In this document: in pieces, positions 2,054 to 37,360 of the stretch
Layout: each line of letters starts with the position of its first letter
Numbering within the stretch: the first letter of the stretch is position 1
Assembly: GCA_024330185.1 (NCBI GenBank)
Contig: JANDLV010000011.1
Location: 19,081 to 83,080, forward strand
Direction of reading: 5' to 3'
From: Candidatus Siliceabacter maunaloa
Lineage (GTDB): Bacteria > Actinomycetota > Thermoleophilia > Solirubrobacterales > Solirubrobacteraceae
DNA: 64,000 nucleotides
Position numbers and translations under genes: made by a program
The notes under the pieces: generated by a model
The model's database searches: none
Seen by the model: only the letters and a program-made list of their open reading frames with translations
Told to the model about the DNA's origin: nothing

Positions 2054-2902
2054 ATGACCATCGCCGACGCAGGAATCTTCACCATCGCCGACCGCACCGT
2101 CCATCGCCTCGGCTTCGGGGCGATGCGCATCACCGGGGAGGGCGTCTGGGGCCCACCCGCCGATCGCGAGCGGGCGCTCGCCGTGCTGCGTCGCTCGCGT
2201 GAGCTGGGCATCGACCTCATCGACACCGCCAACTCCTACGGGCCAGAGGTCAGCGAGGAGCTGATCGCGCAGGCGCTGCATCCGTACGACGAGAATCTGA
2301 CCATCGCCACCAAGGCCGGCCTCACCCGCTCGGGACCCGGCGGGTGGCACGCCGACTGCCGGCCCGAGTCGCTCAAGCACGAGTGCGAGGGCTCGCTGAA
2401 GCGCCTCCAGGTCGACAGCATCGACCTCTTCCAGCTCCACACCGTCGATCGCAAGGTTCCCTACGAGGAGTCGGTCGGCGCCCTCAAGGAGCTCCAGGAC
2501 GAGGGCAAGATCCGCCACATCGGCGTCTCCAACGTCTCCGTGGAGCAGTTGGAGCAGGCCCGCGGGATCGTCGAGGTCCACACCGTCCAGAACCGCTTCA
2601 ACCTCACCGACCGTGCTCACGAGGACGTCCTGGACCACTGCGAGCGCGAGGGGATCGGCTTCATCCCCTACTTCCCGCTGGCCGCCGGCGACCTCGCCAG
2701 CCCCGGCGGGCCCGTCGCCGAGGCGGCAAAGCGCCACGACGCCACACCGGGCCAGGTCGCCCTGGCCTGGCTGCTGGCGCGCAGCGACGTGATGCTGCCC
2801 ATCCCCGGCACCGGCTCGCCCGAGCACCTCGAGGAGAACGCCGGCGCCGGCGGACTGCGCCTGGAGGACGACGAGCTCAGGCGGCTCGAGCAGGCTGCCT
2901 GA
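2054..2902 (+). CDS. aldo/keto reductase family oxidoreductase
   Basis: 282 aa with [22 protein letters not shown] and IRHIGVSN motifs typical of AKRs. Confidence 0.85.
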
Positions 2903-5012
2903 GGGCGTCCGAGGCAGGCTCCGATGGGGGCGGGGCCTCCCCGCCTCCGTCCTCCCGGGCCAGGCGTGAGGGCCACCACACCTTCGGCCCGATGTCCAGC
3001 ACCAGCGCGGGCACGAGGATCGAGCGCACGACGAGGGTGTCCAGCAGCACGCCGAAGGCCACCACGAAGCCGATCTCGGTCAGGAAGACGAGTGGCAGCA
3101 CGCCCAGCGTCGCGAAGGTGCCGGCCAGCACCACGCCGGCCGAGGTGATGACCCCGCCGGTGACGGCCAGGCCGCGCTTCATGCCCTCGCGGGTGCCGTG
3201 GCGCTGCACCTCCTCGCGCACGCGGGCCATGAGGAAGATGTTGTAGTCGACCCCCAGGGCGACCAGGAAGATGAACGCGAACAGCGGGAACGACGGGTCG
3301 CTTCCGGGGAAGCCGAAGACCACGTCGAAGACGACCGCCCCGACGCCCATGGCCGCCAGGAAGGAGAGGACCACGGTGGCGATCAGCAGCGCGGGAGCCA
3401 GAAGCGAGCGCAGCAGCACCACGAGGATCACCGCCACGATGGCCAGCGCGATGGGGATCAGCAGCAGGGTGTCGTAGGCCGACGCGTCACGCAGGTCGTA
3501 CTCCACCGCCGTCGGGCCACCTACGAGCGCCCCGGGCGCCACCCCGCGAACCGCCTCGCGCAGCGGCGCGATCACGTCGAAGGCCTGCGTGCTGTAGGGA
3601 TCGAAGCGCAGCAGCGCGGCGAGTTGGACGGCCTGGTCGTCACCCGCGACCGGCTCGGGGGAGACCCCGGCGACGCCCGCGACCTGCGACGCGGCAGCCA
3701 CCACGGCGTCAACCTGCGAGGGGTCGCGTACGACGATGTCGGTCGGGGCCGACTGGCCCGACGGGAAGGCCTGGGCGATCAGCTCCTGGGCCTGCACCGA
3801 CTCGACCTCCCCGCGGAACGAGTTGGCCGTGGTCAGGCCGTTGGAGTAGTTGAGCAGGCCCAGCGCGAGGACGCCGAGCAGCACGGTGGTGCCCACGGCG
3901 ACCCGGCGCGGCGCGCGGCCGACCCGGTCGCCCAGGCGCCGCCAGGGCCCGTGCGTCTCGTCGGCGCCCCGGTCGCCGAAGTGGGGCACGAAGGGCCAGA
4001 ACGGGCGCCGGCCGACCACCGTGAGCAGCGCGGGCAGGAACGTCAGCATGGCGACCATGGCGATGAAGACGCTCAGCGCGGCCACCGGCCCCATGCCCGA
4101 GGTCCCGTTGACCTTGGCCAGGCTCAGCGACAGCAGCGCCACGGCGACGGTGAGCCCGGAGGCGACGATGGCCGGCCCGGCGCGCCGCAGGGCGAGCGCC
4201 ATGGCCTCGTGCTTGTCCTCGTGGCGGCGCAGCTCCTCGCGGTAGCGCGAGACGAGCAGCAGCGCGTAGTCGGTACCCGCTCCGAGCACCAGCACGGAGG
4301 CGATGGACGACGTCTGGCCGTTGACGGTGATGCCCAGCTCGGTGAGTCCGTAGCCCGCGCCGCGCGCGGCCAGCTCCGCCACGATCACCGCCAGCAGCGG
4401 GAACCACAGGAAGAACGGACTGCGGTAGATCAGGATCAGCAGCACGAAGACCAGCCCGCCGGCGGCCAGCAGCAGCGTCCCGTTGATGGAGGTGAAGATC
4501 TCGATGGCGTCGGCGCTGGCGCCCGCCGGCCCGCCGACCGCCGCCTGCAGCCCGTCGCCGCCCTCGACGACCGCCCGGTAGTCCTCGACGGGCTCGAGGA
4601 TGTCGTCGGACTCGCCGGTGGCCCGCAGCACGTTGGTCACCAGGGCGGTGGTCCCGTCGGGAGAGACCTCGGGGCCCTGGAAGGGCGTCGTGTTGGCGAA
4701 CCGCCCCGTCGCCGCGTTCAGGGCTTCGAGATCCTGCCCGATGGTCGCGCGGTCGGCGGCGGTCAGCCCGCCGTCGCGCTGGTAGACGACGACCGTGGGC
4801 GCCGACTCGGCGCCCTGCAGGCGCTTCGTGATCTCCAGCGCCGCTGTCGACTCCGCGTCGCCCGGCAGGAACGACGTCGACTCGTTCTGCTCGGCCTCGG
4901 TGTACTTGGCGGGCAGGCCGAGGGCGACGATGGCGAGCAGCGCCGCGAACCACACGGCGAGCACGACCCACTTGGAGCGCCGGCCGGCCGAGAGCGTCAG
5001 GAGCTTGGACAT
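2877..5012 (-). CDS. mmpL: MMPL/RND-superfamily membrane transporter
   Basis: ORF 2877..5066 has two 6-TM bundles each preceded by a soluble loop (MMPL layout) and a [13 protein letters not shown]-type motif. The likely start is ATG 5012 ([15 protein letters not shown]). It is divergent from the NRPS. Confidence 0.85.
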
Positions 5013-5249
5013 GGTGCGCGGCACTGTAACGGAGTCCAGATTCCGGTTGAGTGCGGTTACCCACACAATCTCGCCCGACGTAGGCCGCGGCGCGGCCGTC
5101 CACGGGCCGGCGGCCCTCGAGCAGGGGCACGTCGCCCGCCCGCGACGACGACATGGGGCCGGTGCGCGCCGCGCACGACGCGCGCCAGGGCGGCCTGCTC
5201 ACCGGCCGGGGCCCACGAGGGCCCGCGACGAGGGTCCGCGCCCTAACTC

Positions 5250-5278
5250 GTTAGGGCTTCCTAAGTAGGCTACCCTAA
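5250..5278. promoter_or_regulatory. two abutting IdeR/DmdR-type iron-box-like sites
   Basis: GTTAGGGCTTCCTAA (5250-5264) and AGTAGGCTACCCTAA (5264-5278) fit the core GTTAGGnnnnCCTAA of the TTAGGTTAGGCTAACCTAA consensus. The palindrome CCCTAActcgTTAGGG lies at 5241-5256. The sites sit between divergent mmpL and the NRPS. Confidence 0.5.
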
Positions 5279-5329
5279 GGCCATGGCTGGACCGGGGATC
5301 TGTCGCGTATTCAACAGAGAGAGCACCAC

Positions 5330-5383
5330 TTGACCGACCCGTTCGAGGACCCCCACGGCAACCGTCGCGCGCTCCCCGGCTAG
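5330..5383 (+). pseudogene. mbtH-like gene stub (17 codons)
   Basis: TTG ACC GAC CCG TTC GAG GAC CCC encodes (L/M)TDPFEDP, against MTNPFEDP for the intact mbtH at 24947. 21 of the first 24 nt are identical. It then diverges and stops at TAG 5381-5383, 15 nt before the NRPS ATG. Confidence 0.45.
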
Positions 5384-5397
5384 CGACCCCGAACGGA

Positions 5398-8300
5398 ATG
5401 GCGCAGTTTCTGACCACTGACCCGTCCGACCCGTCGTCCGCGCAGCAGCCGGTGCCCGAGCTGCGCAGACGGACCGTGTCGCTGTCGGCCCCGGGAGCGG
5501 CCGCGCTCGATGCCGCCGCACAGCGCTTCGCGACGCGGCCGGCGTGCATCGTGGCGGCAGCGGTCGCCGTGTACGTGTCGCGCATCGCCGGTCTGACGGA
5601 CGTCGCACTCGGGCTGGCCGACGACGCAGGCGACGGGGTCCGGACGCTGCGGGTCACGGTCCGTCCGCAAACGACCGTGGACGAGCTTATCGCGGCGGTC
5701 GCGCGCGCGGCCGCGGACCCCAACGCGCGCGCAGGCGAGGTCGCGGGGCCGATCGTAGCGCTCGTCCTGGCGGACGACAAGCCGCGCTTCGGCCACCACA
5801 CCGCCGCGGTCGGCGACCCGCCGACGGGTCCGCTCGACGACCTGTCGGTCGCCGTCCGCGCGGGCCGCTTGCCCGCCGCTGCGACGCTCGAGCTGTGCGC
5901 GGACGCTGAGGTCGTCGGCGCGGACGAGCTCGCCGACCACGAGCGGCGCCTGCTCGGCGTGCTGGACGCCGTCACCGGCACGGGCGGCATAGTCGTCGGT
6001 TCGATCGAGCTGCTCTCGCCGGACGAGCGGCGCACCGTGAGGCAGCTGTCGGGGCCGCCGCAGCGCGCCGTCGACGAGCTCACGTGGACCGCCGCGTTCG
6101 AACGCCGGGCCGCGCTCGATCCCGAGGCCGTCGCCGTGGTCTGCGAGGACGTCGAGCTGACCTACGGGCAGCTCGCCGAGCACGCCCGCGGGCTGGCACG
6201 CACGCTGCTCGCACGTGGCGTGGGTCACGAGGACGTCGTGGCGGTCGCGGTGCCGCGATCGGTCGAGATGGTCGTGGCGCTGCTGGGCGTGATGCAGGCG
6301 GGAGCCGCCTACCTGCCGCTCGACCTCGACCACCCGCCCGACCGCGTCGCCTTCATGCTGCGCGACTCCGGCGCGCGCATCGTCGTGACCGTCTCCGAGC
6401 TCGCCGGCGACCTGCCGGCGGTCGACGGGCTGCAGGCGCTGCTGCTCGACGATCTGCCGGAGGGCGACGAGAACCTCGACCTTCCCGGTCCACTCGTTCT
6501 CGAGCAGGCGGCCTACGTCATCTACACGTCCGGGTCGACCGGCCGCCCGAAGGGCGTCGTCGTGTCGCACGAGGGCATCGGCAGCCTGATCGCGACGGCC
6601 ATCGATCGCCTCGGCGTCGACGCCCGCAGCCGCGTGGCGCAGTTCGCCTCGATCGGCTTCGACGTCGCCGTCTGGGACCTGTGCATGACGCTCGGCGTGG
6701 GCGGCCGCGCCGTCGTCGTTCCCGATTCGAGGCGGGTCGCGGGCGCGCCGCTGACGGACTACCTCGTCGAGCAGCGGGTCACCCACATGATCCTGCCGCC
6801 CTCGCTGGTCGCCGCGCTGCCGCCGGACTGCCCGCTGCCGCAGGGCGCGGTCCTCGTGGTGGGAACGGAGACCGTGCAGACCGAGCTCGTCACCCGCTGG
6901 TCGCAGCGCCTGCGGGTCTTCGCCGCCTACGGGCTGACGGAGGCGACGGTCAACTCGACGCTGTGGCCGGCGCAGCCCGGCTGGGACGAGCCGGTGCCGA
7001 TCGGCCGGCCCGACCCGAACACCCGCGCATACGTCCTTGATACGGCACTGCGTCCGACCGCGGTCGGGGTCACCGGCGAGCTGTACGTCGGCGGCCGCGG
7101 GCTGGCGCGCGGCTACCTCGGCCGGACGGGCCTGTCATCGCAGCGCTTCGTCGCCGATCCGCACGGCCCGCCGGGCAGCCGCATGTACCGCACCGGCGAT
7201 GGGGCTCGCTGGCGGGCGGACGGCTCGCTGGACTTCCTCGGCCGCACCGACGGGCAGGTCAAGATCCGCGGCCATCGCATCGAACCGGGCGAGATCGAGG
7301 CGGTCCTCATGCGCCACCCCGGCGTCGCGCAGGCCGCGGTGATCGCACGCGAGGACCCACCCGACAAGAAGCGGCTCATCGGCTACGTGGTCTGCGGCGG
7401 CGACCCGCTCGACGCGGCCGCGCTGCGCGCGCGCGTCGCCCACCAGCTGCCCGAGCACATGGTCCCGTCGGCAGTCGTCGTCCTCGACGGGCCGCTGCCG
7501 TTGACGCCCAACGGCAAGCTCGATCGTGCGGCGCTGCCGGCGCCGGATTTCACCGCCCTGACGGGCGGCGCCGAGCCGCGCACGCCGGCCGAGCGCACGC
7601 TCGCGGCGCTGTTCGCGCAGACGCTCGGGCTGCCGCGCGTCGGTGTCCACGACGACTTCTTCGCGCTCGGCGGCGACAGCATCGTCGCCATCGGACTCGT
7701 CAGCCGTGCACGTCAGGCCGGGCTGGTGCTGCGGCCGCGCGACGTCTTCGAGCGGCGCACGGTCGCCGCGCTGGCCGCGGTCGCCCAGCAGCGCCAGGCG
7801 CGGTCGGTGGATCCCCGCGACGGGCTCGGCCGGGTCGCGCCGACGCCGATAATGCACTGGCTGCGCGAGCTCGGCGGGGCGATCGGCGGCTTCTACCAGT
7901 CGCTCCTTCTGCAGGCCCCGGACGGCCTGGGTCGTGAGCGGCTGGAGGCGGTTCTCCAGGCACTGCTCGACCACCACGACCTGTTGCGCGCGCGCCTGCG
8001 CCGCGACGACGGCTGGTCGCTGGAGGTGCCGGCGCCCGGGACGGTGCGGGCCGCGGATCTCGTCGCGATCGTCCACGTCGGTGACGGAGGCCTGCGTGAC
8101 GCGATCGCCGAGCAGACCGAGAGGGCGGCGGCACGGCTGGATCCCGATGGCGGTCGCATGGTACAGGTCGTGTGGTTGCACGCCGGTCCGTCGCAGCCCG
8201 GCCGGGTGCTGTTGCTGGTCCACCACTCGGTCGTCGACGGCGTCTCGCTGCGGATCCTGATGACCGACCTCGCCGACGCGTGGGAGGCGATCGCCGCCGG

Positions 8301-9285
8301 CCGCGCTGCGTGCCCGAATGCCGTCGAAACGTCGTTTCGCCGTTGGTCGGAGCTGCTCTCGCAGACGGGGCGCAGCGGAGCGCGCGCCGGCGAGCGCGAG
8401 CTCTGGTTGCAGGCCGCCAACGCCTCCGACCCCTTGCTGGGCGCCCGCCGCCTGGACCCCGGGCGCGACGTCGTCGGCAGCTCGCGCACGCTGACGGTGT
8501 CCCTGCCCGCCGAGCAGACCGCCACGCTGCTGACCACCGTGCCGGCGCTCTACGGGGCGACCGTCAACGACGTGCTGCTGACCGCCCTGGCGGTCGCCGT
8601 CGGACGCTGGCGCGAGCAGCGCGGCCGCCGGACCACCCCCGAGGTCGTCGTCGATCTGGAGGGCCACGGCAGGGAGGACGTCTTCGACGACGTTGATCTC
8701 GCGCGGACCGTCGGCTGGTTCACGACGCTGTTCCCGGTTCGCCTGGACCCCGGTGCCGTCGACTGGGAGGCGTTGTGTCGCGGCAAGCCGGCCGCCGGGC
8801 ACGCGCTGCGGCGCGTCAAGGAGCAGCTGCGTTCGCTGCCCGACCGCGGCCTGGGCTACGGCATCCTGCGACACCTCGACCCCGGCGCGCGCGAGCAGCT
8901 CGCCGCCGCGCCCGCCCCACAGATGCTCTTCAACTACCTCGGCCGCTTCGCGGTGCAGGACGGCACGCCATGGACGCCCGCACCCGAGGCGCCCCCGCTC
9001 GGCGACGTGCGCGATCCGCAGATGCCGATGGGACACGTGCTCGACGTCGACGCCGTCGTGAGCGACGACGACGACGGGCCACGCCTCAGCACGGTCTTCG
9101 CCTGGCCGCGAGAGGTCTTCTCGGAGGCCGAGATCGCCGCTCTGGGCGAGCTGTGGCTCGAGGCGCTCGCCGGGCTGCACGCCCACGCCGGCGAGCCCGG
9201 CGCCGGCGGGCACACGCCGTCGGACTTCCCGCTCGTGACGCTCGATCAGGCCGAGCTCGACGGCTTCGCGGCGTCGGTCACCGAG
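5398..9285 (+). other. NRPS module 1: truncated C (aa ~25-215), A1, T1 (Ser761), E1 (His942-943)
   Basis: The N-terminus aligns only with the post-HHxxxDG half of C domains. LTYGQL is at aa 254, the A3 core at aa 377, NGKLDR at aa 705, FFALGGDS at aa 755-761, and HHSVVDGVS follows. Confidence 0.8.
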
Positions 9286-17070: not shown

Positions 17071-17843
17071 GCGCCGCCGAGCTCGACCGGTGGGTCCGCC
17101 GCCACCGGCCCGCTTCTGCGGGCCGGCGGCCGCTCGTCTGCTTCCCGCCGGCCGGCGCCGCTGCGAGCTTCTTCCTCGAACTCGCCGCCGCCGCCCCCGC
17201 GGGCGTCGATCCCTGGGCGCTCGTCTACCCGGGCCGCGAGGTCCGCATCCCCGAGCCGCCGCTGACGGAGATGACCCAGCTCGCGAACGCCGTCGCGTCC
17301 GTGCTGGCGCCGACGCTCGACGAGCCTGCGATCCTGCTCGGCCACAGCATGGGCGCGTCCGTCGCCTTCGAGGCCGCACGCGAGCTGGACCGCCTGCGGC
17401 CCGGCTGCGTCGTGCACCTCATCGTCTCCGGTCGCGCCGGCCCGGCCGGCGGCGGGCCGCGCCCGCCCGTCGCGCCGCCGACCGACGAGGAGCTCGTCGC
17501 CGGGCTGCGTATGCTCGGCGGCACGCCGCCGGAGATCTTCGACTCGCCCGACATGCTCGAGCTGCTGCTGCCGCCGATGCGCCACGACTACGACCTGCTC
17601 GCGCGCTACCAGCCGCGCTGGCTGCCGCCGCTGGCGATCCCGATGACCGCGCTGGTCGGCGACGCGGATCCGACAGTCGGCATCGACGCGGTGCGTGCGT
17701 GGAGCGAGGTCTGCGACGCGGCCTTCACGGCCCGTGAGGTCGGGGGAGGCCACTTCTACCTGCAATCGAGCGCCGACGAGGCGGCGTACGCCGTCGCCGA
17801 CGCGCTCGCCGGCGCCGACGTCCTCGCAGCCGAAGGCGCGTGA
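17067..17843 (+). CDS. type II thioesterase (alpha/beta hydrolase)
   Basis: GTG 17067 overlaps the NRPS TGA (GTGA). Motifs: [14 protein letters not shown], the GHSMGA nucleophile elbow, and GGHFYL near the C-terminus. Confidence 0.85.
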
Positions 17844-19537
17844 GCCCCGGCGCGCTGCGCATCGCGCACGGCGGGGTGCTGCGCGGCGCGATCTGGGGTC
17901 AGCGGCGGCGCGTCGCGATCGGTTCGGCGCTGCTGATCGCCCACCAGGCCGGCGAGGCGATGGTGCCCGTCATCGTGGGCGCGACGATCGATCGCGCGAT
18001 CGTCACCGGCGACGCCGGTGCGCTCGGGGTCTGGCTGGGTGTGCTCGCCGTGACGTTCGCGGTGCTGTCGGTCTCCTACCGCTTCGGCGACCGCTTCGTC
18101 GAGCGTGCATCGCAGACCGCGGCGCACGACCTGCGACTCGCGCTCACGCGCCGCATCCTGCATCCCCGCGGCGGCGCCGCGGAGGGCCGGCCGTCCGGCG
18201 GGCTGCTGAGCATCGCCACCTCCGACGCCTCGCGCGTCGGCGAGGTCAACGTCGTCATCGGCGTCGGCGCCTCGGCCGTCGCCGGGATCACGGTCGCCGC
18301 TGCCGCGCTGCTGCAGATCTCGCTCGTGCTCGGGGCGCTCGTGCTCGTCGGGCTGCCGCCGCTGCTCGTGCTCATCCACCTGCTCGGACGCCCGCTCGTC
18401 CGGCGCGCGGCCTCCGAGCAGGCCGAGGCGGCCGGCGCGACCGGCGTCGCCGCAGATCTCATCGCCGGGCTGCGCGTGCTGAAGGGGATCGGCGCCGAGT
18501 CCGCGGCGATCGAGCGCTACCGCGACTCGAGCCGCCGGTCTCTGGCCGCCACGCTGCGCGCGGCGGGCGCCGAGGCCACCGTCGCGGGCGTCGGCATCCT
18601 GCTGACCGGTGCCTTCCTCGCCCTCGTCGCGCTGATCGGCGGGCGCCTGGTCGCCGACGGGAGGATCGAGCTCGGCGAGTTCATCGCAGCCGTCGGGCTG
18701 ACGGGCTTCCTGACCGGCCCGCTCTCGTTGAGCTCGTACGTCGTCTTGGACCTCGCGCGGGGGCGCGCCTCGGCCGGCCGCGTCGCCGGACTGCTCGACA
18801 GCCCCGTGGCCGTGACGGGAGGAACGCGGGCGCCGTCGCCGCCGCCGGCCGGGGCCGTCGCGCTGCGAGACGTGCGCCATCGCGGGCTGGACGGGCTGAA
18901 CCTCGAGATCAGCGCCGGCGAGCACGCCGCGATCGTCGCGACCGACGCCGCCGACGGCGCCGCGCTCGTCGAGCTGCTGGCCCGCGCGGCGGACCCCCAG
19001 GCGGGCTCGGTGCAGCTCGACGGCGTCGCCTACACCGAGCTCGATCCCGACCTGCTGCGCGCCGTCGTGCGCGTCTCCGCCCACGACGCCGAGCTGTTCG
19101 ACGGCAGCCTGAGCGACAACCTGCGCGCCGCGGCGCCCGGGGAGCGCGTCGACGCCGCGCTCGTCGCGGCCGACGTGGCGGACGTCGTGGCGGCCCTGCC
19201 CGGCGGGCTGGACGCCACGCTGGGCGAGCGCGGGCGCTCGCTGTCGGGAGGCCAGCGCCAGCGCGTCGCGCTCGCGCGCGCGCTGGCCGCCGACGCCGCG
19301 GTGCTCGTCCTGCACGACCCCACGACCGCGGTCGACGCGGTGACCGAGGCGCGCATCGCCGCGCGCGTCCGTGACCTGCGTGCCGGGCAGACGACGATCG
19401 TCGTCACGAGCAGCCCGGCCCTGCTCGCCGCGGCCGATCGCGTCGTGCTGCTCGCCGGCGGGCGGGCCGGCGCGACCGGCTCGCACATGCAGCTGATGCA
19501 TCGGGACGCCCATTACCGCGCGGCGGTGCTCGCGTGA
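17840..19537 (+). CDS. ABC transporter permease/ATPase fusion (exporter fold) with degenerate NBD
   Basis: 565 aa with an N-terminal 6-TM domain. The signature [15 protein letters not shown] is intact. Walker A is replaced by [13 protein letters not shown] (nt 18932-18970), Walker B reads VLVLHDPT, and the H-loop His is absent. The start overlaps the thioesterase stop. Confidence 0.85.
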
Positions 19538-21291
19538 CGCTCGCCTACGAGCAGCTGCCGGTCGCCGCCGCGCCCCAGACGCGCCGCGCCGCGCTCGCCC
19601 TCGCGCGCCCCAGACGGCTCGCGCTGGCAGCGGCGGCCGCGCTCGTCGTGGGGACCGCCGCCGGTCTCGCGGTCCCGGCGATCCTCGGCCACATCGTCGA
19701 TCTCGTCACCGACCGGCGCGGCGTCGCGGAGCTGACCGGGCCGGCGATCCTCCTGCTGGCCGCGGCCGTCGTGCAGGGCGTGCTGACGGCAGTCGGCCAG
19801 GCGCTCGTGGCCCGCCTCGGCGAGGGCGCGCTCGCCGAGCTGCGCGAGCGCGTCGTCGAGCGGGTGCTGATGTTGCCGCTGCAGCGCATCGAGCGTGCCG
19901 GCAGCGGCGATCTCGTCGCGCGCGTCAGCGACGACGTGGCCGAGATCGCCGAGGCCGTCCGGCAGGCGCTGCCGCGGATGGCGAGCTCTGCGCTGATCGT
20001 GGGGCTGACGCTCGTCGGACTGGCGGCGCTCGACTGGCGCCTCGCGCTGGCAGGGCTCGTCGCGGTCCCGATCCAGGCGCACACGCTGCGCTGGTACCTG
20101 CGCCACTCGGCGCCGGTCTACGCGGCCGAGCGCCGCGCCGCGGCGGCACGGGCGCAGCAGCTGCTGGACTCGGTCTCGGGCGCCGGGAGCGTGCGGGCGT
20201 TCGGACTCGCACCGGACCACATCGCGCGCGTCGAGCGGCGCTCCTTGGACGCGCTTGCGCTCACGATGCGAGCCGTCAATCTCATCACCCGCTTCTTCGC
20301 GCGGCTGAATGCCGCCGAGCTGCTCGGGGTCGCCGCAATCCTCTCGACCGGCTTCGTGCTCGTGCGCTCCGGCCAGATCACGGTCGGTCAGGCGACTGCC
20401 GCGGCGCTCTACTTCATCCGCCTGTTCGATCCGATCAACATCCTGCTCGCGCTGGTCGACGACGCCCAGCGCGCGGGGGCGAGCCTCAGCCGACTCGTCG
20501 GGGTCACCGCCATGGACCCGCCCGACGAGCCGCCGGCGCCGCCGCGCCCGGCGGATGCCTCGGTCGTACTGCAGGACGTCCGGCACGCGTACGTCAGCGG
20601 CTACGACGTGCTCGACGGCATCGACCTGGAGATCCGGCCCGGTGAACGAATCGCGCTGATCGGCGTCAGCGGCGCGGGCAAGACGACGCTCGCGCGCGTC
20701 GTCGCGGGCATCCAGCGTCCGACCGCGGGCCGGGTCCTGCTGGGCGGCGTCGAGCTCGCGCAGCTCGGGCGCGCCGCTACCGCGCGCAGCGTCGGTCTCG
20801 TGAGCCAGGAGGTGCACGTGTTCGCCGGCACGCTGGCCGACGACCTGCGCATGGCGCGCTCGTCCGCCGGCGACGACGAGCTCGCCGCGGCGCTCGAGCG
20901 CGTCGGCGCGCTGGAATGGGTGCGCGCGCTGCCCGACGGCCTGGCGACGGCCGTCGGGGACGGAGGGCAGCGGCTGACGGCGCAGCGAGCGCAGCAGCTC
21001 GCGCTGGCGCGCATCGTCCTCGCCGACCACCCGATCGTGATCCTCGACGAGGCGACGGCCGAGTCGGGCAGCACCGGCGCCCGCGCGCTCGAGGCGGCGG
21101 CGGCCGCGGCGCTCGAGGGCCGCACGGCGCTCGTCGTCGCGCACCGCCTGACGCAGGCGGCGGCGGCCGACAGGGTCGTCGTCATGGAGTCCGGGCGCAT
21201 CGTCGAGCAGGGCACGCACGCGGACCTCGTCACCGCTGACGGGCCGTACGCCGCGCTGTGGTCCGCATGGTCCGATGGACGCAACGCGTGA
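19534..21291 (+). CDS. ABC transporter permease/ATPase fusion (exporter fold) with consensus NBD but degenerate signature
   Basis: 585 aa with Walker A GVSGAGKTT, Q-loop VSQE, Walker B IVILDEAT and H-loop VVAHRL. The signature motif reads LTAQRAQQ instead of LSGGQ. The gene overlaps the upstream ABC gene by 4 nt. Confidence 0.9.
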   Translation: MTLAYEQLPVAAAPQTRRAALALARPRRLALAAAAALVVGTAAGLAVPAILGHIVDLVTDRRGVAELTGPAILLLAAAVVQGVLTAVGQALVARLGEGALAELRERVVERVLMLPLQRIERAGSGDLVARVSDDVAEIAEAVRQALPRMASSALIVGLTLVGLAALDWRLALAGLVAVPIQAHTLRWYLRHSAPVYAAERRAAAARAQQLLDSVSGAGSVRAFGLAPDHIARVERRSLDALALTMRAVNLITRFFARLNAAELLGVAAILSTGFVLVRSGQITVGQATAAALYFIRLFDPINILLALVDDAQRAGASLSRLVGVTAMDPPDEPPAPPRPADASVVLQDVRHAYVSGYDVLDGIDLEIRPGERIALIGVSGAGKTTLARVVAGIQRPTAGRVLLGGVELAQLGRAATARSVGLVSQEVHVFAGTLADDLRMARSSAGDDELAAALERVGALEWVRALPDGLATAVGDGGQRLTAQRAQQLALARIVLADHPIVILDEATAESGSTGARALEAAAAAALEGRTALVVAHRLTQAAAADRVVVMESGRIVEQGTHADLVTADGPYAALWSAWSDGRNA

Positions 21292-21323
21292 GGACCGCCA
21301 ACCGCCCGGCACGCCACAGGGGA

Positions 21324-21342
21324 AGGTGTTAGGGTGACCTAA
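21324..21342. promoter_or_regulatory. iron-box-like site upstream of the formyltransferase operon
   Basis: AGGTGTTAGGGTGACCTAA matches the TTAGGTTAGGCTAACCTAA consensus at 13/19 positions by hand alignment. It lies 88 nt upstream of ATG 21430. Confidence 0.5.
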
Positions 21343-21429
21343 TACTGCGGGGCGGCGATCCGCGTCCGCCGGTCCATCCGACGGGGTGCCGAGCACCGGC
21401 CGTCGGCGGCAACCCCGGGAGGAGCGCTC

Positions 21430-22437
21430 ATGAACGTCGTGCTGTTCGCCTACCAGACCTGGGGCCACCGGGTGCTGCAAGCGCTGACCGAGTCCCGCCA
21501 CGAGGTCGTGCTGGTCGCCACCCACCCGCCGGGCGACGACGCGTACGAGACGATCTGGACCGACTCCGTCCAGAGGCTCGCGGAGCAGCACGGGCTCCCG
21601 GTGCTCGTCAAGGCCCTTCCGGACGACGAGACGGCGGCACGCGTGCGCGACGCCGGCGCCGACGTCATGGTGGCGTGCAACTGGCGGACGTGGATCCCGC
21701 CCGAGATCTTCGCTGCGCCGCGGCTGGGCACGCTCAACGTTCACGACTCGCTGTTGCCCGCCTACGCCGGCTTCGCGCCGCTCAACTGGGCGGTGATCAA
21801 CGGCGAGCCGGAGGTCGGCATCACGGCCCACGTCATGGACGAGCGGCTCGACCGCGGCGCGATCATCCTGCAGCCGCGAGTGACCGTCGAGCCGGACGAC
21901 ACGATCGGCGATCTGTTCGCCAAGACGCTCATGCTGTTCGGGCCGACGACCGTCGCGGCGCTCGACCACATGGAGCACGGTACCGGCGAGCGCCGCCCCC
22001 AGGATCCCGCACAGGCCACGTTCTTCCACAAGCGCGCCGAGGAGGACAGTCGCATCGACTGGATTTGGCCGGCGCAGGACATCGCCAACCTCGTCCGCGC
22101 CCAGGCCGACCCGTATCCGAACGCCTTCAGCTTCCATGGCGCGGCACGCCTGCAGATCCGCTCGGCCTCCGTCTCGCCCACCCGCGCGGGCGGCACGCCG
22201 GGCCGGATCTTCGCCCGTCAGGGCGACGGGGTGATCATCGTGTGCGGGCCGGACGCGCGCCGCGGTCGCAATCACGGCCTCGTCATCGAGCAGCTGCGCA
22301 CCGAGGACGGCGAGGAGCTCGCGGCGGGCGACTACTTCAAGCGGCTCGGCGGATACCTCACCGCACATCCGGGCGACCCGGACCGCTCTGCGCGGGCGGT
22401 CGGGCAGCGGATCGTCGCGGCCGGCGCAGCGCGTTGA
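21430..22437 (+). CDS. Fmt-like formyltransferase (candidate N5-hydroxyornithine formyltransferase)
   Basis: 335 aa. The N-terminal formyltransferase fold carries NVHDSLLPAYAGFAPLNWAVINGE and there is an Fmt-like C-terminal domain. The gene sits in a hydroxamate NRPS context. Confidence 0.85.
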   Translation: MNVVLFAYQTWGHRVLQALTESRHEVVLVATHPPGDDAYETIWTDSVQRLAEQHGLPVLVKALPDDETAARVRDAGADVMVACNWRTWIPPEIFAAPRLGTLNVHDSLLPAYAGFAPLNWAVINGEPEVGITAHVMDERLDRGAIILQPRVTVEPDDTIGDLFAKTLMLFGPTTVAALDHMEHGTGERRPQDPAQATFFHKRAEEDSRIDWIWPAQDIANLVRAQADPYPNAFSFHGAARLQIRSASVSPTRAGGTPGRIFARQGDGVIIVCGPDARRGRNHGLVIEQLRTEDGEELAAGDYFKRLGGYLTAHPGDPDRSARAVGQRIVAAGAAR

Positions 22438-23171
22438 GCACCGCTCGTCTCCGCGCCGGGCACGTCGCCGCTGCCTTCGCGCCGTGCAGCGTGTGGTGGT
22501 CGGGGCCGATCGGAGACGTCGGCGCGGCGCGGGAACTGCTCGACGAGGCCGAGCGCACGCGCTACGACGGCCTGCGCTCCCCGCACGACCGGGCACGGTT
22601 CGTGACGGGCCGGGTGCTGGCACGGCGCGCGCTCGCCGCCGAGCTGCGCACCGACCGTGCGGCGATCACCCTGATCACACGCTGTCCGATCTGCGGCGGG
22701 CCGCACGGCAAGCCGATCCTGGCCGGTGGACGCACCGCGATCGACTTCTCGATCTCGCATGCCGGCGAGCGCGTCATCGTCGCGACGAGCCACGCCGGGG
22801 CGATCGGCGTCGACGTCGAGCGGATCGGCCCGATCGGAGATCTTGCGACGCCCGAGGCGGGGGTGCTCGCCGACGACGAGCGATCCGTCTTGCGGGCGCT
22901 GCCCGCGGCGCGGCGCGAGGCGGCGTTCATGCGCTACTGGACGCGCAAGGAGGCGGTGCTGAAGGCGACCGGCGACGGACTCCTGACGCCGATGGCCGCG
23001 CTGCGCGTGACGGCACCCGGGGCAGAGCCTGCGGTCGCCGGCTGGCCTGCGGGCCAGCCGGCGCGTGAGGTCCGGATGCTCGACCTGGATGCCGGGCGCG
23101 GCTATCGTGCCTGCCTCGCGGTCCTGACGGCGCTGCCCCTGGAGCTGACCGAGCGGTCGCTGCTTCAGTGA
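22434..23171 (+). CDS. 4'-phosphopantetheinyl transferase (Sfp type)
   Basis: Frame of ORF 21675..23171. Motifs: ISHAGERV, GVDVERI and WTRKEAVLKATGDG. The start is TTG 22434 (overlapping the upstream TGA), with GTG 22491 as an alternative. Confidence 0.8.
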   Translation: MSTARLRAGHVAAAFAPCSVWWSGPIGDVGAARELLDEAERTRYDGLRSPHDRARFVTGRVLARRALAAELRTDRAAITLITRCPICGGPHGKPILAGGRTAIDFSISHAGERVIVATSHAGAIGVDVERIGPIGDLATPEAGVLADDERSVLRALPAARREAAFMRYWTRKEAVLKATGDGLLTPMAALRVTAPGAEPAVAGWPAGQPAREVRMLDLDAGRGYRACLAVLTALPLELTERSLLQ

Positions 23172-23281
23172 GACGAGAACCAGGGCTGACGGTGCCCGTC
23201 AGGCGTGTGCGGCAGTAACAGCACGAGCCCGTCCGACTCGAGAGGGCGCCGGGCGCGCCGGCGACGCGAACGTGAGCGAGG

Positions 23282-24379
23282 TCAGGGAGCTTCGTCTGGG
23301 ACTCTGCGGGGCTCCTCTACCTCAGTGCTCGGATCGCCGTCGACCGCGGTGGCGAGCCGCGGCACCATCTCCTCGATCGCGTAGGGCAGGCTCAGCGGGC
23401 TGTTGTACGAGAGCGCACCGGAGAGCTCGTCGAGATACTCGACATATATGTCGCGACCCTCGCGCACGGCGTTGAGGCGGGCGTAGATCGGGTTTTTCTC
23501 GATCGTGTCCTGGCCTGCTTCCCCGATCTCGAGCATCACGAGCACGTCTTGGTCAAGGAGGCGAAAGCGCTCGGTGCTGATTTCCGTGAAGGACTCCCCG
23601 TCGGCCCGCCGATCGATCTCGTCGGGCGTCTTGAAGCCCAGCGCTGCGAGGAACCGCGCGCGGGGCTCCTGCCCCGTATAGGCGCCAAAGTTGCCATCCC
23701 CATCCACCGTCGCGAACACCGCGGCCGCCCCCTCGAACTCCGGGTGGGCCTCGCGCGCTCCGGCGAACTGACCCTCAAGTTCGGCGACGATATCCTCGGC
23801 GTGCTCGCCGCGGCCGAGCGCACGGCCGGTGACCCGTAGCGTTTCCTGCCAGGGCTGGCCGAAGTCGACGAACTCGTTCGACTGCGCGATGGTGGGGGCG
23901 ATCTGCGAGAGCGTTTCGTAGTCTTTCTCCGTCATGCCCGACTGGCTCCCGAGGATGAGGTCCGGCCGTAGCGCCGCTACCTGCTCGAAGTTGAGCTCCG
24001 CCACGGGCAAGAGCTCGGGTTTGGCGTCGCCGAGCTCGTCCCGCGCCCAAGACCAGTTTTCGCTGGGCTGGCCGCCGAAGAACTCGCGCACCGCGACGGG
24101 GATGACGCCGAGCGCGAGCGGAAAGTCCTGCTCACCGAAGCCGACCGTCACGACCCGCTTGGGTGGCGCGGGAACCCCGGTGCTGCCGTACTTGTGCTCG
24201 ATCGTGGCGGGGAAGGCGCCAGCGCCCTCCCCCGTGGGCGCCTCGCCCGTGTCGTCCTCACCGCAGCCAACGAACACTGCCGCGCCGAGCGCGAGGCCGC
24301 CGGCCAAGAACCTACGGCGTGTGAGGGCGGCAACGACCTGGGGTGTGGGAGAGACGGGACGGGCAAGAACGCGGGTCAT
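23282..24379 (-). CDS. iron-siderophore ABC transporter substrate-binding lipoprotein
   Basis: 365 aa with a Tat/lipoprotein leader (TRRRFLAGGLALGAAVFVGCG) and a FecB/FepB-like periplasmic binding body. Confidence 0.85.
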   Translation of the reverse strand: MTRVLARPVSPTPQVVAALTRRRFLAGGLALGAAVFVGCGEDDTGEAPTGEGAGAFPATIEHKYGSTGVPAPPKRVVTVGFGEQDFPLALGVIPVAVREFFGGQPSENWSWARDELGDAKPELLPVAELNFEQVAALRPDLILGSQSGMTEKDYETLSQIAPTIAQSNEFVDFGQPWQETLRVTGRALGRGEHAEDIVAELEGQFAGAREAHPEFEGAAAVFATVDGDGNFGAYTGQEPRARFLAALGFKTPDEIDRRADGESFTEISTERFRLLDQDVLVMLEIGEAGQDTIEKNPIYARLNAVREGRDIYVEYLDELSGALSYNSPLSLPYAIEEMVPRLATAVDGDPSTEVEEPRRVPDEAP

Positions 24380-24417
24380 GAGTCTCCATTTCTGTCAGGG
24401 CGAGACCTTGGGCACGA

Positions 24418-24436
24418 ACTACTAAGGGCATCCTAA
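24418..24436. promoter_or_regulatory. weak iron-box-like site upstream of the SBP gene
   Basis: The core CTAAGGGCATCCTAA lies 39 nt upstream of the minus-strand start at 24379. It matches the 19-mer consensus at about 10/19. Confidence 0.35.
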
Positions 24437-24850
24437 CACCTACGGGCCGGCGGTTGATGGGCCCCTCGCTGTCTGGTGTGGGGGACCCGCTTGGCTGGGA
24501 TCGGTGCCGGGCCCATGACGAAGGGCCAAGAGGCGAGAAAGCACTGTGGACCGCCGATCGAGCGATCGAGCTGTCTGTCCTCGATGCCCGTCGTTCGCGG
24601 GTGTGACCTTGGCTTGGACCTGCAAATCGGCGCCTTTCGACGCACGGGCGATGTCTCCTCAACCGATAGGACGCCGTCGTGCGGCGGCCACGCGAGGCTG
24701 ACGAAGCCATCCGCCGCCTGACGTGAGGGCTCGGCGCTACCCACGCGAAGTAGCGAGGAGCGGGTTGATGCCATCGCCTCGAGCAATTAGGCAGCCCTAC
24801 TTGTATATGCCGGCCCGCGGAGCGTGGGTTGGCGGAGGACCCGACCTGGT

Positions 24851-24869
24851 AGCGGTTAGGATACCCTAA
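24851..24869. promoter_or_regulatory. iron-box-like site upstream of mbtH/N-hydroxylase operon
   Basis: AGCGGTTAGGATACCCTAA matches the IdeR/DmdR consensus at 14/19 by hand. A second weaker copy, ATTAGGCAGCCCTAC, is at 24786-24800. Confidence 0.55.
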
Positions 24870-24946
24870 CGAGCGACATCTGGGTGTACGCCGGGTGCCG
24901 TGAGGGCTGTCGGTCCGATGCAGTCAGCGAAGAGGGGAGAACGTCG

Positions 24947-25174
24947 ATGACCAACCCGTTCGAGGATCCCGGTGGCACGTACGTCGTGCTCATCAACGAC
25001 GAGGGGCAGCACTCGCTGTGGCCGTCGTTCGTCGCGGTGCCGGCCGGCTGGACGGTGGCGCACGGGGAGAGCTCCCGCAGCGCATGCCTGGACTACGTCA
25101 ACGAGAACTGGACCGACCTGCGACCCGCCAGCCTCATCCGGAGCATGGACAGTGGCGCCCGTCATACCTCGTAA
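24947..25174 (+). CDS. mbtH: MbtH-like protein
   Basis: [35 protein letters not shown] carries the full MbtH signature. This is an internal ATG of ORF 24884..25174, preceded by GAAGAGGGGAGA. Confidence 0.9.
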
Positions 25175-26504
25175 GGCGCCCGCCGAGTGCGTGCACGACG
25201 TCCTGGGCATCGGCTTCGGTCCGTCGAACCTCGCGCTCGCGATCGCGATCGACGAGCACAACCGCTCGCGGCCGGGCGATGCCGCCCTCGACGCCGTGTT
25301 CATCGAGAAGCAGAGCCGATTTGGATGGCACCGCGGCATGCTCATCGACGACGCAACGATGCAGGTGTCGTTCCTTAAGGACCTCGTCACGATGCGCGAT
25401 CCGACGAGCGCCCACAGCTTTGTTGCCTACCTGCACGATCGCGGGCGCCTGGTCGACTTCATGAACCACAAGACGCTGTTCCCGCTGCGGATCGAGTTTC
25501 ACGACTACCTCGAGTGGTCCGCCGGGCGGATGTCGCATCTCGTCGAGTACGGCGGCGAGGTCGTCGACGTGCAGCCGGTGCGCGAGGACGAGGTTGTGTG
25601 GGCCTTCGACGTCACGGTCCGCGAGCCCGGGCGGGAGCCGATCGTGCGCCGGGCGCGCAACCTCGTCGTCGCCATCGGCCTGGAGCTGCGCATGCCGCCG
25701 GGGATCGAGCGGTCGGCGCGCATCTGGCACAGCCGCGACTTCCTGCGCCACGTCGAGGAGCTGGCGGACGGTCCGCGGCCCGGTCGCTTCGTCGTCATCG
25801 GCGCGGGCCAGAGCGCGGCCGAGGTCACGGGCTACCTGCATCGCGAATTCCCGGAGGCCGAGGTCTGCGCGGTCTTCTCGCGCTACGGCTACTCGCCGGC
25901 CGACGACAGCCCGTTCGCCAACCGCATCTTCGATCCCGAGGCGGTCGACCTGTACTACGACGCGCCGCCGGCCGCCAAGCGGATGCTGCTCGACTACCAC
26001 CGCAACACGAACTACTCGGTCGTCGATACGGAGCTGATCGAGGAGCTCTACCGTCGCTCGTACCAGGAGAAGGTGACCGGTCGCGAGCGCCTGCGGATCC
26101 TGCACACGTGCAAGGTGCTCGGGGTTCGCCACGGCGACGGCGCGGTGCTGACGACGCTCGAGTCGCTGGCGACCGGTGAGCGCAGCGAGCTCGAGTCCGA
26201 CGCGGTGATCTTCGCCACCGGCTACCGGCCGGTGTGCCCGCTGGGGGTCCTCGGCCAGGCACGATCGCTGTGCGCCACCGGCGACGGCGGGATGGTGTGC
26301 ATCCGGCGCGACTACCGAATCGCCACGACATGCGCGACGCGCGCCGCGATCTACCTGCAGGGCGCCACCGAGCACACGCACGGCATCGGCTCGACCCTGC
26401 TGTCGAACACCGCCGTGCGCGCTGGAGAGATCCTTGACTCGGTCCTGCGCCACGACCCGCAACGCAGCGACGGCTCTCTGGTTTACGCCGGCGAGCAGGC
26501 CTGA
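25152..26504 (+). CDS. L-ornithine/L-lysine N-hydroxylase (flavin-dependent N-monooxygenase)
   Basis: Frame of ORF 24972..26504. Motifs: GIGFGPSNL (FAD), [10 protein letters not shown] (NADPH) and [11 protein letters not shown]. The start is GTG 25152 (overlapping the mbtH stop) or GTG 25191. Confidence 0.9.
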
Positions 26505-30711: not shown

Positions 30712-30753
30712 CGGCCGGCACGCTACCCGCCGCGGGCGCGGTAAGCTGTTGGT

Positions 30754-30987
30754 ATGCAATCGGAGCGTGTGACCGTCACCATGCCCGCCGACGTCGCCAA
30801 GGCTGCGCGAGAGCGGGTGGAAGCCGGGGAGAGCCGGTCGTTGAGCGCCTTCGTCGCCGAGGCCGTGGAGGAGAAGGCGAAGCGAGAGACGTTGCGTGAG
30901 GTTCTCGACGACATCCGGGGCGAGATCGGCCCCCCGGGTCCCGAGGCGGAGGCGTGGGCCGACCGCGTCCTCGGTCGCCTGCGCTGA
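30754..30987 (+). CDS. vapB: ribbon-helix-helix antitoxin (VapB/CopG-like)
   Basis: 77 aa. RVTVTMPADVAKAARERVEAGESRSLSAFV is an RHH pattern. It overlaps the downstream PIN gene. Confidence 0.7.
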   Translation: MQSERVTVTMPADVAKAARERVEAGESRSLSAFVAEAVEEKAKRETLREVLDDIRGEIGPPGPEAEAWADRVLGRLR

Positions 30988-31352: not shown

Positions 31353-31368
31353 CCATATCCTCGTCGCC

Positions 31369-32595: not shown

Positions 32596-32662
32596 TGTCT
32601 GACGTCCGGAGACCGTCAGCCGGCGTCAAAACGCGGCGCTGGATGCCCCGCGGAGCACTCTG

Positions 32663-33862: not shown

Positions 33863-33954
33863 CTCGGCTGCTGCGGTGTGGCCCCTGCGTCCGGGTCACC
33901 CGACCGCGAACGATTTACCCAACTCTTAGTTGCGGGGCGCAGGCCGGTCGGCCC

Positions 33955-36410: not shown

Positions 36411-36481
36411 AGCGCGCGCCACCCTACCCATCGCGTGCACGAGGAGGACTGCCGGCGGCAGGCCGGGCATCCTCTAGGGCG

Positions 36482-37051: not shown

Positions 37052-37092
37052 GCCGCCCCGGTGCCGGATCCGGGCGCGGTATGGTCACCCAT

Positions 37093-37350: not shown

Positions 37351-37360
37351 CCACCGCGCC

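Follow-up and report, generated by a model that had tools for sequence, protein, structure and literature searches.

Within the window (the whole stretch of DNA analysed here, 64,000 nucleotides (nt) of contig JANDLV010000011.1), positions 2877-26504 hold a real, complete-looking hydroxamate peptide siderophore cluster of an uncultured soil bacterium of the family Solirubrobacteraceae, represented by a metagenome-assembled genome (MAG). We consider it very probable that this is an iron-repressed cluster for the biosynthesis and transport of an ornithine-hydroxamate peptide siderophore, built by a nonribosomal peptide synthetase (NRPS) of three modules, and its product is likely a new hydroxamate siderophore of three or four residues. 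Observed directly are the genes and domains, the iron-box sites with their conservation, and the specificity codes of the adenylation (A) domains. An earlier note, made from the letters of this DNA, had proposed a hydroxamate siderophore cluster in a non-streptomycete host; the first proposal is supported by the gene and domain inventory, the iron boxes and a third A domain of the N5-hydroxyornithine (hOrn) type, and the host is indeed a Solirubrobacteraceae MAG, in the class Thermoleophilia.

Genes were identified through Pfam profiles and Protein Data Bank (PDB) sequence matches of translated open reading frames (ORFs). The G+C content of the window is 70-77% throughout, and the G+C content of third codon positions marks one clear gene per stretch across it. 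All ten genes listed in the earlier note are present (Table 1); some of their frames and start codons were corrected, and independent gene calls for the source contig match the corrected coordinates. Two mechanically derived ORFs (17090-17737 and 22484-23068) gave no Pfam match because they lie in the wrong frame, the right frames being those of the thioesterase and 4'-phosphopantetheinyl transferase (PPTase) genes in Table 1. The left flank consists of glutamine synthetase and aldo/keto reductase genes and the right flank of a DUF255 thioredoxin-like gene and RidA, and the remainder of the window outside the cluster encodes primary metabolism; with flanking genes of this kind, the limits proposed for the cluster are sound. 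The same NRPS protein sequence is encoded in three assemblies, the NRPS and formyltransferase genes being found also on CCXAPD010000047.1 (GCA_973374305.1) and in the Logan assembly of SRR19994649. MbtH-like proteins, one of which is encoded in the cluster, are the usual helpers of NRPS A domains. NCBIfam gave no equivalog-level name for the cluster proteins, and Rfam gave no match.

Table 1. Genes, NRPS domains and iron-box-like sites of the cluster (positions in nt of the window unless stated; A, adenylation; T, carrier; E, epimerization; C, condensation; aa, amino acids; ABC, ATP-binding cassette)
Feature	Position	Strand	Evidence or motif
MMPL-family RND transporter	2877-5066	-	Pfam MMPL, E-value 4e-120
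Tandem iron-box-like palindromes	5251-5278 (starts 5251, 5265)		TTAGGGCTTCCTAA then directly GTAGGCTACCCTAA, 14 nt apart
Trimodular NRPS, 3890 aa	5398-17070	+	Pfam, motifs, domain models
Module 1	5398-9222	+	starter-C remnant, A1, T1, E1
Starter-C remnant	NRPS aa 1-229	+	C-terminal half only, no HHxxxDG
A1	6085-7545	+	code DVWIVGAVNK
T1	7573-7797	+	GGDSI motif
E1	7813-9222	+	HHSVVDG motif
Module 2	9268-13812	+	C2, A2, T2 (GGDSI), E2 (HHLAVDG)
C2	9268-10617	+	HHILADG motif
A2	10645-12132	+	code DVLSFGAIQK
Module 3	13888-17070	+	C3, A3, T3
C3	13888-15222 (motif at nt 14272)	+	variant motif N-H-L-V-L-W-D-G
A3	15235-16788	+	code DMENLGLINK
T3	16813-17037	+	GGHSL motif
Stand-alone thioesterase, 258 aa	17067-17843	+	PF00975, E-value 8.5e-39, 134 bits
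ABC half transporter 1 (ABC1)	17840-19537	+	ABC_membrane + ABC_tran (Pfam)
ABC half transporter 2 (ABC2)	19534-21291	+	ABC_membrane + ABC_tran (Pfam)
Iron box	21329-21342		TTAGGGTGACCTAA, upstream of formyltransferase gene
Fmt/ArnA-like N-formyltransferase	21430-22437	+	Pfam, both N- and C-terminal domains
Sfp-type PPTase, 226 aa	22491-23171	+	PF01648 + AASDHPPT_N; source-contig gene call
Peripla_BP_2 siderophore-type substrate-binding lipoprotein	23282-24379	-	PF01497
Divergent promoter region, binding-protein gene/mbtH	24423-24869		three boxes: 24423, 24787, 24856
MbtH-like protein, 75 aa	24947-25174	+	PF03621, E-value 1.5e-28
Lys/Orn N-monooxygenase	25191-26504 (alternative start 25152)	+	PF13434, E-value 3e-108

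Related loci were collected by an NRPS scan of one genome per species (185,579 species), from which 78 loci were kept (L001-L078), the source of the window not being among them. Only two of these share both the trimodular architecture and the thioesterase: L077, from an uncultured actinobacterial MAG (74% identity over the whole NRPS and 68-84% for the other genes), and L036, from Patulibacter medicamentivorans of the Solirubrobacterales (NRPS 61% identical). A metagenome scan with the thioesterase added three short soil contigs (L081-L083, 73-81% identical) on which the NRPS end, the thioesterase gene and the ABC1 gene follow in this order, and returned no further members of the family. Near-identity to a characterised cluster was thus considered and rejected, in keeping with the expectation of a new cluster: the best match among the 185,579 species representatives is the L077 MAG, followed by Patulibacter.

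Iron boxes were searched for with the 14-bp core TTAGGNNNNCCTAA (a palindrome, TTAGG-N4-CCTAA), which was adopted after the intergenic regions had been read and was scanned with at most one mismatch. Six sites were found in the 64 kb, against 0.07 expected by chance; all six lie in four promoter regions of the cluster, and none elsewhere. The tandem pair occupies the promoter region shared by the divergent MMPL and NRPS genes, the box at 24423 lies upstream of the binding-protein gene, and those at 24787 and 24856 lie upstream of mbtH and the monooxygenase gene. The iron boxes that had been noted as flanking the cluster are, moreover, kept at orthologous promoters of L077 and L036. L077 has a tandem pair upstream of its NRPS gene with identical 14-nt spacing and likewise three boxes upstream of mbtH, and a site orthologous to the box at 21329 is present both in L077 (17062) and in L036 (27897). 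In L056, which is more distant, the exact IdeR core TTAGGTTAGCCTAA stands between the genes for the formyltransferase and the hydroxylase.

From these predicted sites we infer, with good support, iron-responsive repression by a DtxR/IdeR-type protein. Two results weigh against it: the full 19-bp IdeR consensus (TTAGGTTAGGCTAACCTAA) had no match in the window at up to three mismatches, and no DtxR/IdeR-type domain was matched among the window ORFs scanned with Pfam, so the identity of the repressor is inferred. The sites resemble the IdeR/DmdR boxes of actinobacteria in their TTAGG...CCTAA palindromic core, their place in siderophore promoters and their retention in related clusters; they differ in being 14-bp palindromes, at one promoter as a direct tandem pair, whereas the actinobacterial boxes follow a 19-bp consensus. 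The region 24380-24946, which holds three of the boxes, is an unusually long (~570 nt) intergenic region of lower G+C content, with no Rfam match and no convincing ORF.

The domain order of the NRPS was determined by motif searches and by domain hidden Markov models (HMMs) built from the NRPS itself. Pfam matched three AMP-binding (A) domains, three PP-binding (peptidyl carrier protein, T) domains and four condensation-type stretches, and the order is a vestigial half C domain followed by A1-T1-E1-C2-A2-T2-E2-C3-A3-T3. The protein has no thioesterase (TE) domain and no terminal C domain, and ends ~10 aa past T3. The CchH-like order claimed in the earlier note was thereby recovered from the HMMs as A-T-E-C-A-T-E-C-A-T, the published string of CchH, the coelichelin synthetase, being A/T/E-C/A/T/E-C/A/T (PMC5932044). 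Compared with the starter C domain of a related synthetase, residues 1-229 of the NRPS match its residues 258-500 only; as the half with HHxxxDG is missing, this stretch is read as a vestige, and with half a starter C domain N-alpha-acylation is not expected. T1 and T2 carry the GGDSI motif that is usual before E domains, and both E domains have HHxxxDG and FNY(L/Y)G motifs, so the D configuration is predicted for residues 1 and 2. In C3, Leu takes the place of the second His of HHxxxDG.

To read the specificity codes, the A domains were aligned with MAFFT, with the conserved A4, A5 and A10 motifs as anchors, and the codes were checked in a wider alignment. Their assignment to substrates draws on colinearity with published structures and on the codes reported for the coelichelin (cch) cluster; a literature search for the code strings found nothing relevant. 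The cch codes are reportedly DINYWGGIGK, DFWNVGMVHK (Thr) and DMENLGLINK, as Challis and Ravel are said to have given them in 2000 and Lautru in 2005. Against these, A1 and A2 differ and A3 agrees, in line with the earlier count of two differing codes out of three. By its code, which is identical to that of the hOrn modules of exochelin-type five-module synthetases, A3 is of the hOrn type, as had been predicted. Across the 78 loci, 122 of the 133 C domains that stand directly upstream of a DMENLGLINK module have another residue in place of the second His of HHxxxDG (H-L/F-x-x-x-D-G), and C domains upstream of other modules have the canonical motif in 130 of the 141 that show one. The replaced motif may mark C domains that acylate the N5-hydroxylamine and so form a backbone hydroxamate; the variant in C3 would agree with such a linkage at residue 3.

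The A1 code is the module-1 code of albachelin-like six-module and of salinichelin-/foroxymithine-like four-module loci (PMC6151521; PMC5776446), and it holds the module-1 position wherever the product begins with N5-acylated hOrn. The formyltransferase is the sole acylating enzyme of the cluster, which makes N5-formyl-N5-hydroxyornithine (fhOrn) the likely substrate; A1 most likely loads N5-formyl-N5-hydroxy-L-ornithine, which would then be epimerised to the D form. The building blocks had been described as unassigned, a description that no longer applies to A1, with its standard module-1 code of albachelin/salinichelin/foroxymithine-like synthetases, and that still applies to A2. The A2 code falls in a small family, D(V/P)(L/Q)DFG(A/V)(I/V)QK, which in the relatives probably belongs to the D-Arg module of the salinichelin type. 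Its position 278 is Ser in the window (AGC, 11362-11364; NRPS residue 1989) and Asp in L077, L036 and all nine four-module loci with this code family; the change from Asp to Ser needs two nucleotide substitutions and is the same in three assemblies. A search with the A2 domain returned, as its best 120 matches, only entries shorter than 900 aa, nearly all of them Ser-code domains (45-57% identity). The nearest generic relatives among such short entries are of Ser type, yet six of ten code positions differ from theirs, and no substrate was therefore assigned to A2.

Codes and domain strings were extracted for all loci, which fall into four groups, (a) to (d). Group (a) comprises five-module synthetases of Mycolicibacterium and many other genera with the codes DINYWGGIGK / (I/V)DTLxSSGDK / DMENLGLINK / DFWNVGMVHK / DMENLGLINK, an order matching what we take to be that of exochelin MS (fhOrn, beta-Ala, hOrn, allo-Thr, hOrn). 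Group (b) consists of six-module Amycolatopsis synthetases (DVWIIGAVNK / Ser / DMENLGLINK with an insertion / Ser / Ser / DAQEGGLVDK), which fit colinearity with albachelin, a chain of N-alpha-acetyl-fhOrn, three Ser, N-methyl-hOrn and cyclic hOrn (PMC6151521); the last code resembles the scabichelin hOrn code DAWEGGLVDK (PMC7692728). Group (c), from Streptomyces and Couchioplanes, has four modules in the order C-A-T-C-A-T-E-C-A-T-C-A-T-C and the codes DVWIVGAVNK / DPQDFGVIQK / DMENLGLINK / DVFILGAVNK. SlcE is described as having three A domains predicted to be of Orn type and another that escapes prediction and loads D-Arg, with its only E domain in module 2 and a C domain at the end, for a product acyl-hOrn / D-Arg / hOrn / fhOrn (PMC5776446); group (c) matches this description, its salinichelin/foroxymithine typing being by published domain descriptions and not by sequence comparison. 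Group (d) contains four-module variants with E domains in modules 1 and 2 (L003, L012 and L039).

The window NRPS can be aligned colinearly, at 49-60% identity, with modules 1-3 of the synthetases in groups (c) and (d). It is 52-60% identical to the four-module synthetases of DVWI type versus 43-47% to the DINY type of group (a), and by sequence it lies nearer to the four-module lineage of the erythrochelin/salinichelin/foroxymithine type than to that of the coelichelin/exochelin type. The label coelichelin-like thus fits the domain string and probably does not reflect close kinship. No trimodular locus with the code set reported for cch was present among the 78 loci kept, the weakest members of which are 42-44% identical. 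Synthetases of the exochelin order also occur beyond mycobacteria, in Actinoplanes, Dactylosporangium, Nonomuraea, Lentzea, Actinocorallia, Thermopolyspora and Nucisporomicrobium, and Pseudonocardia loci have a variant with DARQxGVIDK in place of the beta-Ala code.

The thioesterase, of the type II family and separate from the synthetase, carries the motifs GHSMG (nucleophile) and GGGHFY and is closest in the PDB to 6vap and RifR. The gene begins with a GTG that overlaps the stop codon of the NRPS gene, and the order NRPS-thioesterase-ABC1 recurs in L077, L036 and L081-L083. A thioesterase gene lies beside all three T-terminated trimodular synthetases (3/3) and on the three metagenome fragments versus none of the 75 loci with at least four modules, many of which end in a C or E domain. 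This distribution and the overlapping stop and start codons argue for chain release rather than mere proof-reading, and the protein is probably the chain-release enzyme. What had been called a type II thioesterase is thus a stand-alone PF00975 protein as described, although the role of a mere proof-reader is disfavoured by its distribution and coupled start.

Two further enzymes would supply the hydroxamate residues. The formyltransferase, which has an HDSLLP (HxSLLP) motif and is 59-84% identical to the formyltransferases of related hydroxamate clusters, would formylate N5-hydroxyornithine. The monooxygenase has FAD (GFGPSN) and NADPH (GAGQSA) motifs, and its substrate is likely L-ornithine, as weighed below.

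The cluster encodes several candidate transport proteins. The MMPL protein has 729 aa from the first start codon (711 aa from 5012 in the NCBI gene call), and its best solved relatives are MmpL4 and MmpL5 (E-values 6e-55 to 2e-45) versus 2.5e-19 for MmpL3; it falls below the NCBIfam subfamily cut-off (460 versus 875 bits). It is a probable siderophore exporter, resembling MmpL4/MmpL5 by best PDB match and being encoded behind an iron-box promoter, whereas those proteins are ~960-1000 aa long and thus ~250 residues longer. No MmpS-like partner adjoins the gene; the only small ORF without annotation nearby (32603-33040) has no Pfam match. In ABC1, the Lys of Walker A and the Glu of Walker B (LHDPTT) are lost and LSGGQ is canonical; in ABC2, both Walker motifs are canonical (A, GVSGAGKT; B, ILDEAT) and the signature is degenerate. 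The two are predicted to form a heterodimer with one consensus and one degenerate ATP site. They are 43-52% identical to a pair encoded between the formyltransferase/mbtH genes and the NRPS gene in Mycolicibacterium loci, a position that we take to be that of exiT. ExiT is the exochelin exporter (PMC6684656), and by position and homology the window pair is probably an ExiT-like exporter. The binding lipoprotein has a twin-arginine signal (RRRFL) and a Cys lipobox, and its best PDB matches are the mycobacterial iron-transport lipoproteins 4mdy, 7fhm and 4pm4, together with other siderophore-binding proteins.

These parts suggest the following sequence of events. With plentiful iron, the four promoter regions would be bound at their six TTAGG-N4-CCTAA boxes by a DtxR/IdeR-type repressor encoded elsewhere. 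Under iron shortage, the monooxygenase would make N5-hydroxy-L-ornithine, part of which the formyltransferase would turn into fhOrn, the PPTase would prime the three carrier domains, and MbtH would aid the A domains. Module 1 would load and epimerise fhOrn; module 2 would add and epimerise a residue X, Arg-like in the relatives, for which the pocket Asp is here Ser; and module 3 would add L-hOrn, probably via its N5-hydroxylamine to give a backbone hydroxamate. The NRPS has neither a TE nor a terminal C domain, for which reason the translationally coupled stand-alone thioesterase would free the chain. Export would run via the ExiT-like ABC heterodimer, the MmpL4/5-like transporter or both, and the lipoprotein would capture the ferric complex for import by a permease whose gene lies elsewhere.

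For the product, we tentatively favour a tris-hydroxamate tetrapeptide consisting of D-fhOrn / D-X / L-hOrn and a second D-fhOrn contributed by re-use of module 1, because the four-module relatives make tris-hydroxamate tetrapeptides and iron prefers three bidentate ligands. We take the doubled residue in coelichelin to be fhOrn. A different residue is named in the paper that describes CchH as lacking a TE domain, as needing the separate cchJ for release and as making a tetrapeptide from three modules (PMC9854754). Several points weigh against the proposed pathway: module 1 re-use would follow by analogy with CchH and from a requirement for three bidentate ligands, release would be by a PF00975 thioesterase that is likened to CchJ in its proposed role, and the host is known as a MAG. 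Under strict colinearity, the NRPS default, three modules with three carrier domains and an ordinary type II-family release enzyme would instead yield a linear or C-terminally cyclised tripeptide, D-fhOrn / D-X / L-hOrn, whose two hydroxamates would bind iron in complexes that have several ligands per metal, or with the side chain of X assisting. We regard this tripeptide as possible but doubtful: CchH, the sole characterised synthetase with this exact string, is non-colinear and makes a tetrapeptide (PMC9854754), and the tris-hydroxamate tetrapeptides of four-module relatives, such as salinichelin A, suggest selection for three bidentate groups. If the tetrapeptide is right, the NRPS could represent a second lineage, not close to CchH, of non-colinear T-terminated trimodular synthetases, in which module 4 and the terminal C domain were lost from a four-module ancestor of the erythrochelin/salinichelin type, module 1 is re-used, and a trans-acting thioesterase releases a tris-hydroxamate tetrapeptide with a new central D-residue; we put this forward as a conjecture open to doubt. 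A third possibility, that the hydroxamates derive from lysine (N6-hydroxylysine) as in mycobactin, was raised by the best PDB match of the monooxygenase, 9nns (~65% identical), deposited as 'L-lysine N6-monooxygenase MbtG', a label that counts against an ornithine substrate; the Pfam family, moreover, covers Lys and Orn enzymes alike. The next matches are the ornithine hydroxylases KtzI (E-value 3e-114), PvdA and SidA (both ~1e-83), and PDB entries labelled as lysine or cadaverine hydroxylases are far weaker (5cqf, 190 bits; 5o8p, 112 bits). The enzyme is also 57% identical to the hydroxylase of the albachelin-like Amycolatopsis locus, and the albachelin enzyme acts on ornithine, not lysine (PMC6151521). 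With these relatives and the A3 code, identical to that of the exochelin-type hOrn modules and reportedly to that of CchH module 3, lysine-based chemistry was rejected as extremely unlikely and ornithine is the likely substrate. The genomic context points to ornithine, and the 9nns label may be automatic, as 'MbtG' is often assigned in that way.

The uptake half of the cluster raises two more alternatives. Neither a FecCD permease nor an ATPase partner for it was found by Pfam among the cluster genes and 19 flanking ORFs, and no ferric-siderophore reductase is encoded in the window; both results weigh against a self-sufficient transport cluster, as does, for the MMPL protein as exporter, that no MMPL gene was seen in L036. 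In L077, positions 18168-22158, between the formyltransferase gene and mbtH, encode a fused FecCD-FecCD permease (713 aa), a binding protein and an ATPase; the window counterpart (22491-24379) encodes the PPTase and a binding protein that is only 27% identical to that of L077. The import module is thus swapped or lost in the window relative to L077, and the uptake half is incomplete here. It could be supposed that the ABC pair fills the gap, importing the ferric siderophore in the manner of IrtAB/YbtPQ together with the adjacent lipoprotein and leaving the MMPL protein as sole exporter. A binding protein is present beside no permease or ATPase of the FecCD kind, YbtQ is among the solved relatives of ABC1 (E-value 1e-39), the best solved relatives of the lipoprotein are mycobacterial iron lipoproteins, and the MMPL protein resembles the siderophore exporters MmpL4/MmpL5. 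We nevertheless hold import by the ABC pair to be unlikely. L077 has the same ABC pair next to a complete FecCD-ATPase-binding-protein importer, so the pair is not needed for import there; its homologues occupy the position of the exporter ExiT in exochelin-type loci; and ABC1 and ABC2 are too short for an IrtA-type N-terminal reductase domain. The PDB matches of the pair are generic type IV exporters; generic multidrug/lipid exporters rank far above the importer YbtQ, and IrtAB is not among the best 60 matches. The same losses could mark a decaying or silent remnant that, with the importer and a piece of the starter C domain gone, yields no functional siderophore: the starter C is a half-domain, the FecCD and ATPase genes of L077 are absent, and the Asp at A2 position 278 is lost. 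This is very unlikely, since all reading frames are intact and have the third-position G+C bias of real genes, catalytic motifs are intact in the A, T, E and C domains, the thioesterase, the formyltransferase and the monooxygenase, iron boxes are kept at every promoter, the NRPS is identical in three assemblies, and the synthetases of L003 and L039 likewise begin without a full C domain.

The DNA beside the cluster was annotated in the same way. Just outside it, positions 29239-32595 hold an AMP-binding acyl-CoA-ligase-like gene (minus strand) and a divergent acyl-CoA dehydrogenase gene; no iron box lies near them, and they therefore probably belong to unrelated fatty-acid metabolism. An ORF at 33182-33895 has a weak HTH_Tnp_1 match (E-value 1.6e-5) and may be a mobile-element remnant a few kb from the cluster. 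A central-carbon gene group (34197-42816 and 50131-52437) encodes a fused succinyl-CoA-ligase-like protein (ATP-grasp_2 + CoA_binding + Ligase_CoA, ~758 aa), an HpcH/citrate-lyase-like aldolase, a GTP-dependent phosphoenolpyruvate carboxykinase and a methylmalonyl-CoA-mutase-type enzyme with a fused B12 domain. The sole tRNA of the window, tRNA-Ser (GGA) at 61477-61561, sits where the stop-to-stop frames of NMT1/THI5-like (minus strand) and aquaporin MIP (plus strand) genes overlap, so the starts of these two genes need trimming.

NRPS hydroxamate siderophore clusters are common in actinobacteria, and this one is a variant of a familiar kind; its compound is likely new, though of a type that could be foreseen. 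The interest of the cluster lies in the recurrence of the CchH-type architecture, three modules without a release domain, in a synthetase closer to the four-module family, and a comparison with CchH could help explain module re-use, which is unexplained for coelichelin. The Asp-to-Ser change at a specificity position of A2 is a natural experiment in substrate switching. The host lineage, Solirubrobacteraceae, is widespread in soil, and knowledge of the iron chelator that it makes could help to bring it into culture. In the literature searched, no siderophore characterised from relatives of Solirubrobacter turned up. If the reading is true, this would be, to our knowledge, the first description of a siderophore pathway in Thermoleophilia, a soil class that is abundant but barely cultured.

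Among known systems, coelichelin of Streptomyces coelicolor shares the third-module code DMENLGLINK with the window by the codes reported for it, whereas the window has DVWIVGAVNK in place of the fhOrn code DINYWGGIGK in A1 and DVLSFGAIQK in place of the Thr code DFWNVGMVHK in A2. The domain string of CchH is identical to that of the window NRPS, A-T-E-C-A-T-E-C-A-T, likewise without a TE domain (PMC5932044). The cch cluster also shares a formyltransferase and an ornithine N-monooxygenase (encoded by the cchA/cchB pair) and an MbtH-like protein (CchK); it uses a separate release enzyme (CchJ), the role proposed here for the thioesterase, and is controlled by DmdR through iron boxes (PMC9854754), as predicted for the window. 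The window differs from cch in that its release enzyme is a PF00975 type II-family thioesterase, in lacking a FecCD/ATPase importer and in its host, of the class Thermoleophilia; it also has an MMPL transporter and a PPTase that cch lacks, both of which the earlier note had pointed out and both of which the Pfam matches in Table 1 bear out.

The closest NRPS lineage with cultured representatives is that of the salinichelin (slc, Salinispora), foroxymithine (fxm, S. venezuelae) and erythrochelin types. These loci share with the window the A1 code DVWI(V/I)GAVNK and the A3 code DMENLGLINK, and the four-module loci share the formyltransferase, monooxygenase, MbtH, ABC-pair and binding-protein genes. 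Their A2 code, D[VP][LQ]DFG[AV][IV]QK, is related, with Asp at 278 where the window has Ser. Unlike them, the window NRPS has no module 4, no terminal C domain and only half a starter C domain, and its cluster has a trans-acting thioesterase and no acetyltransferase; its module 1 has an E domain that the salinichelin type lacks. In the exochelin MS system of Mycolicibacterium smegmatis (fxbA, fxbB/C, exiT, fxuA-D), formyltransferase, MbtH and ABC-pair genes lie beside the NRPS as in the window, the hOrn modules have the identical code DMENLGLINK, and the C domains upstream of them have the same variant motif as C3. The exochelin type differs from the window in its five modules, its DINYWGGIGK, beta-Ala and Thr codes, and its dedicated FxuABC importer.

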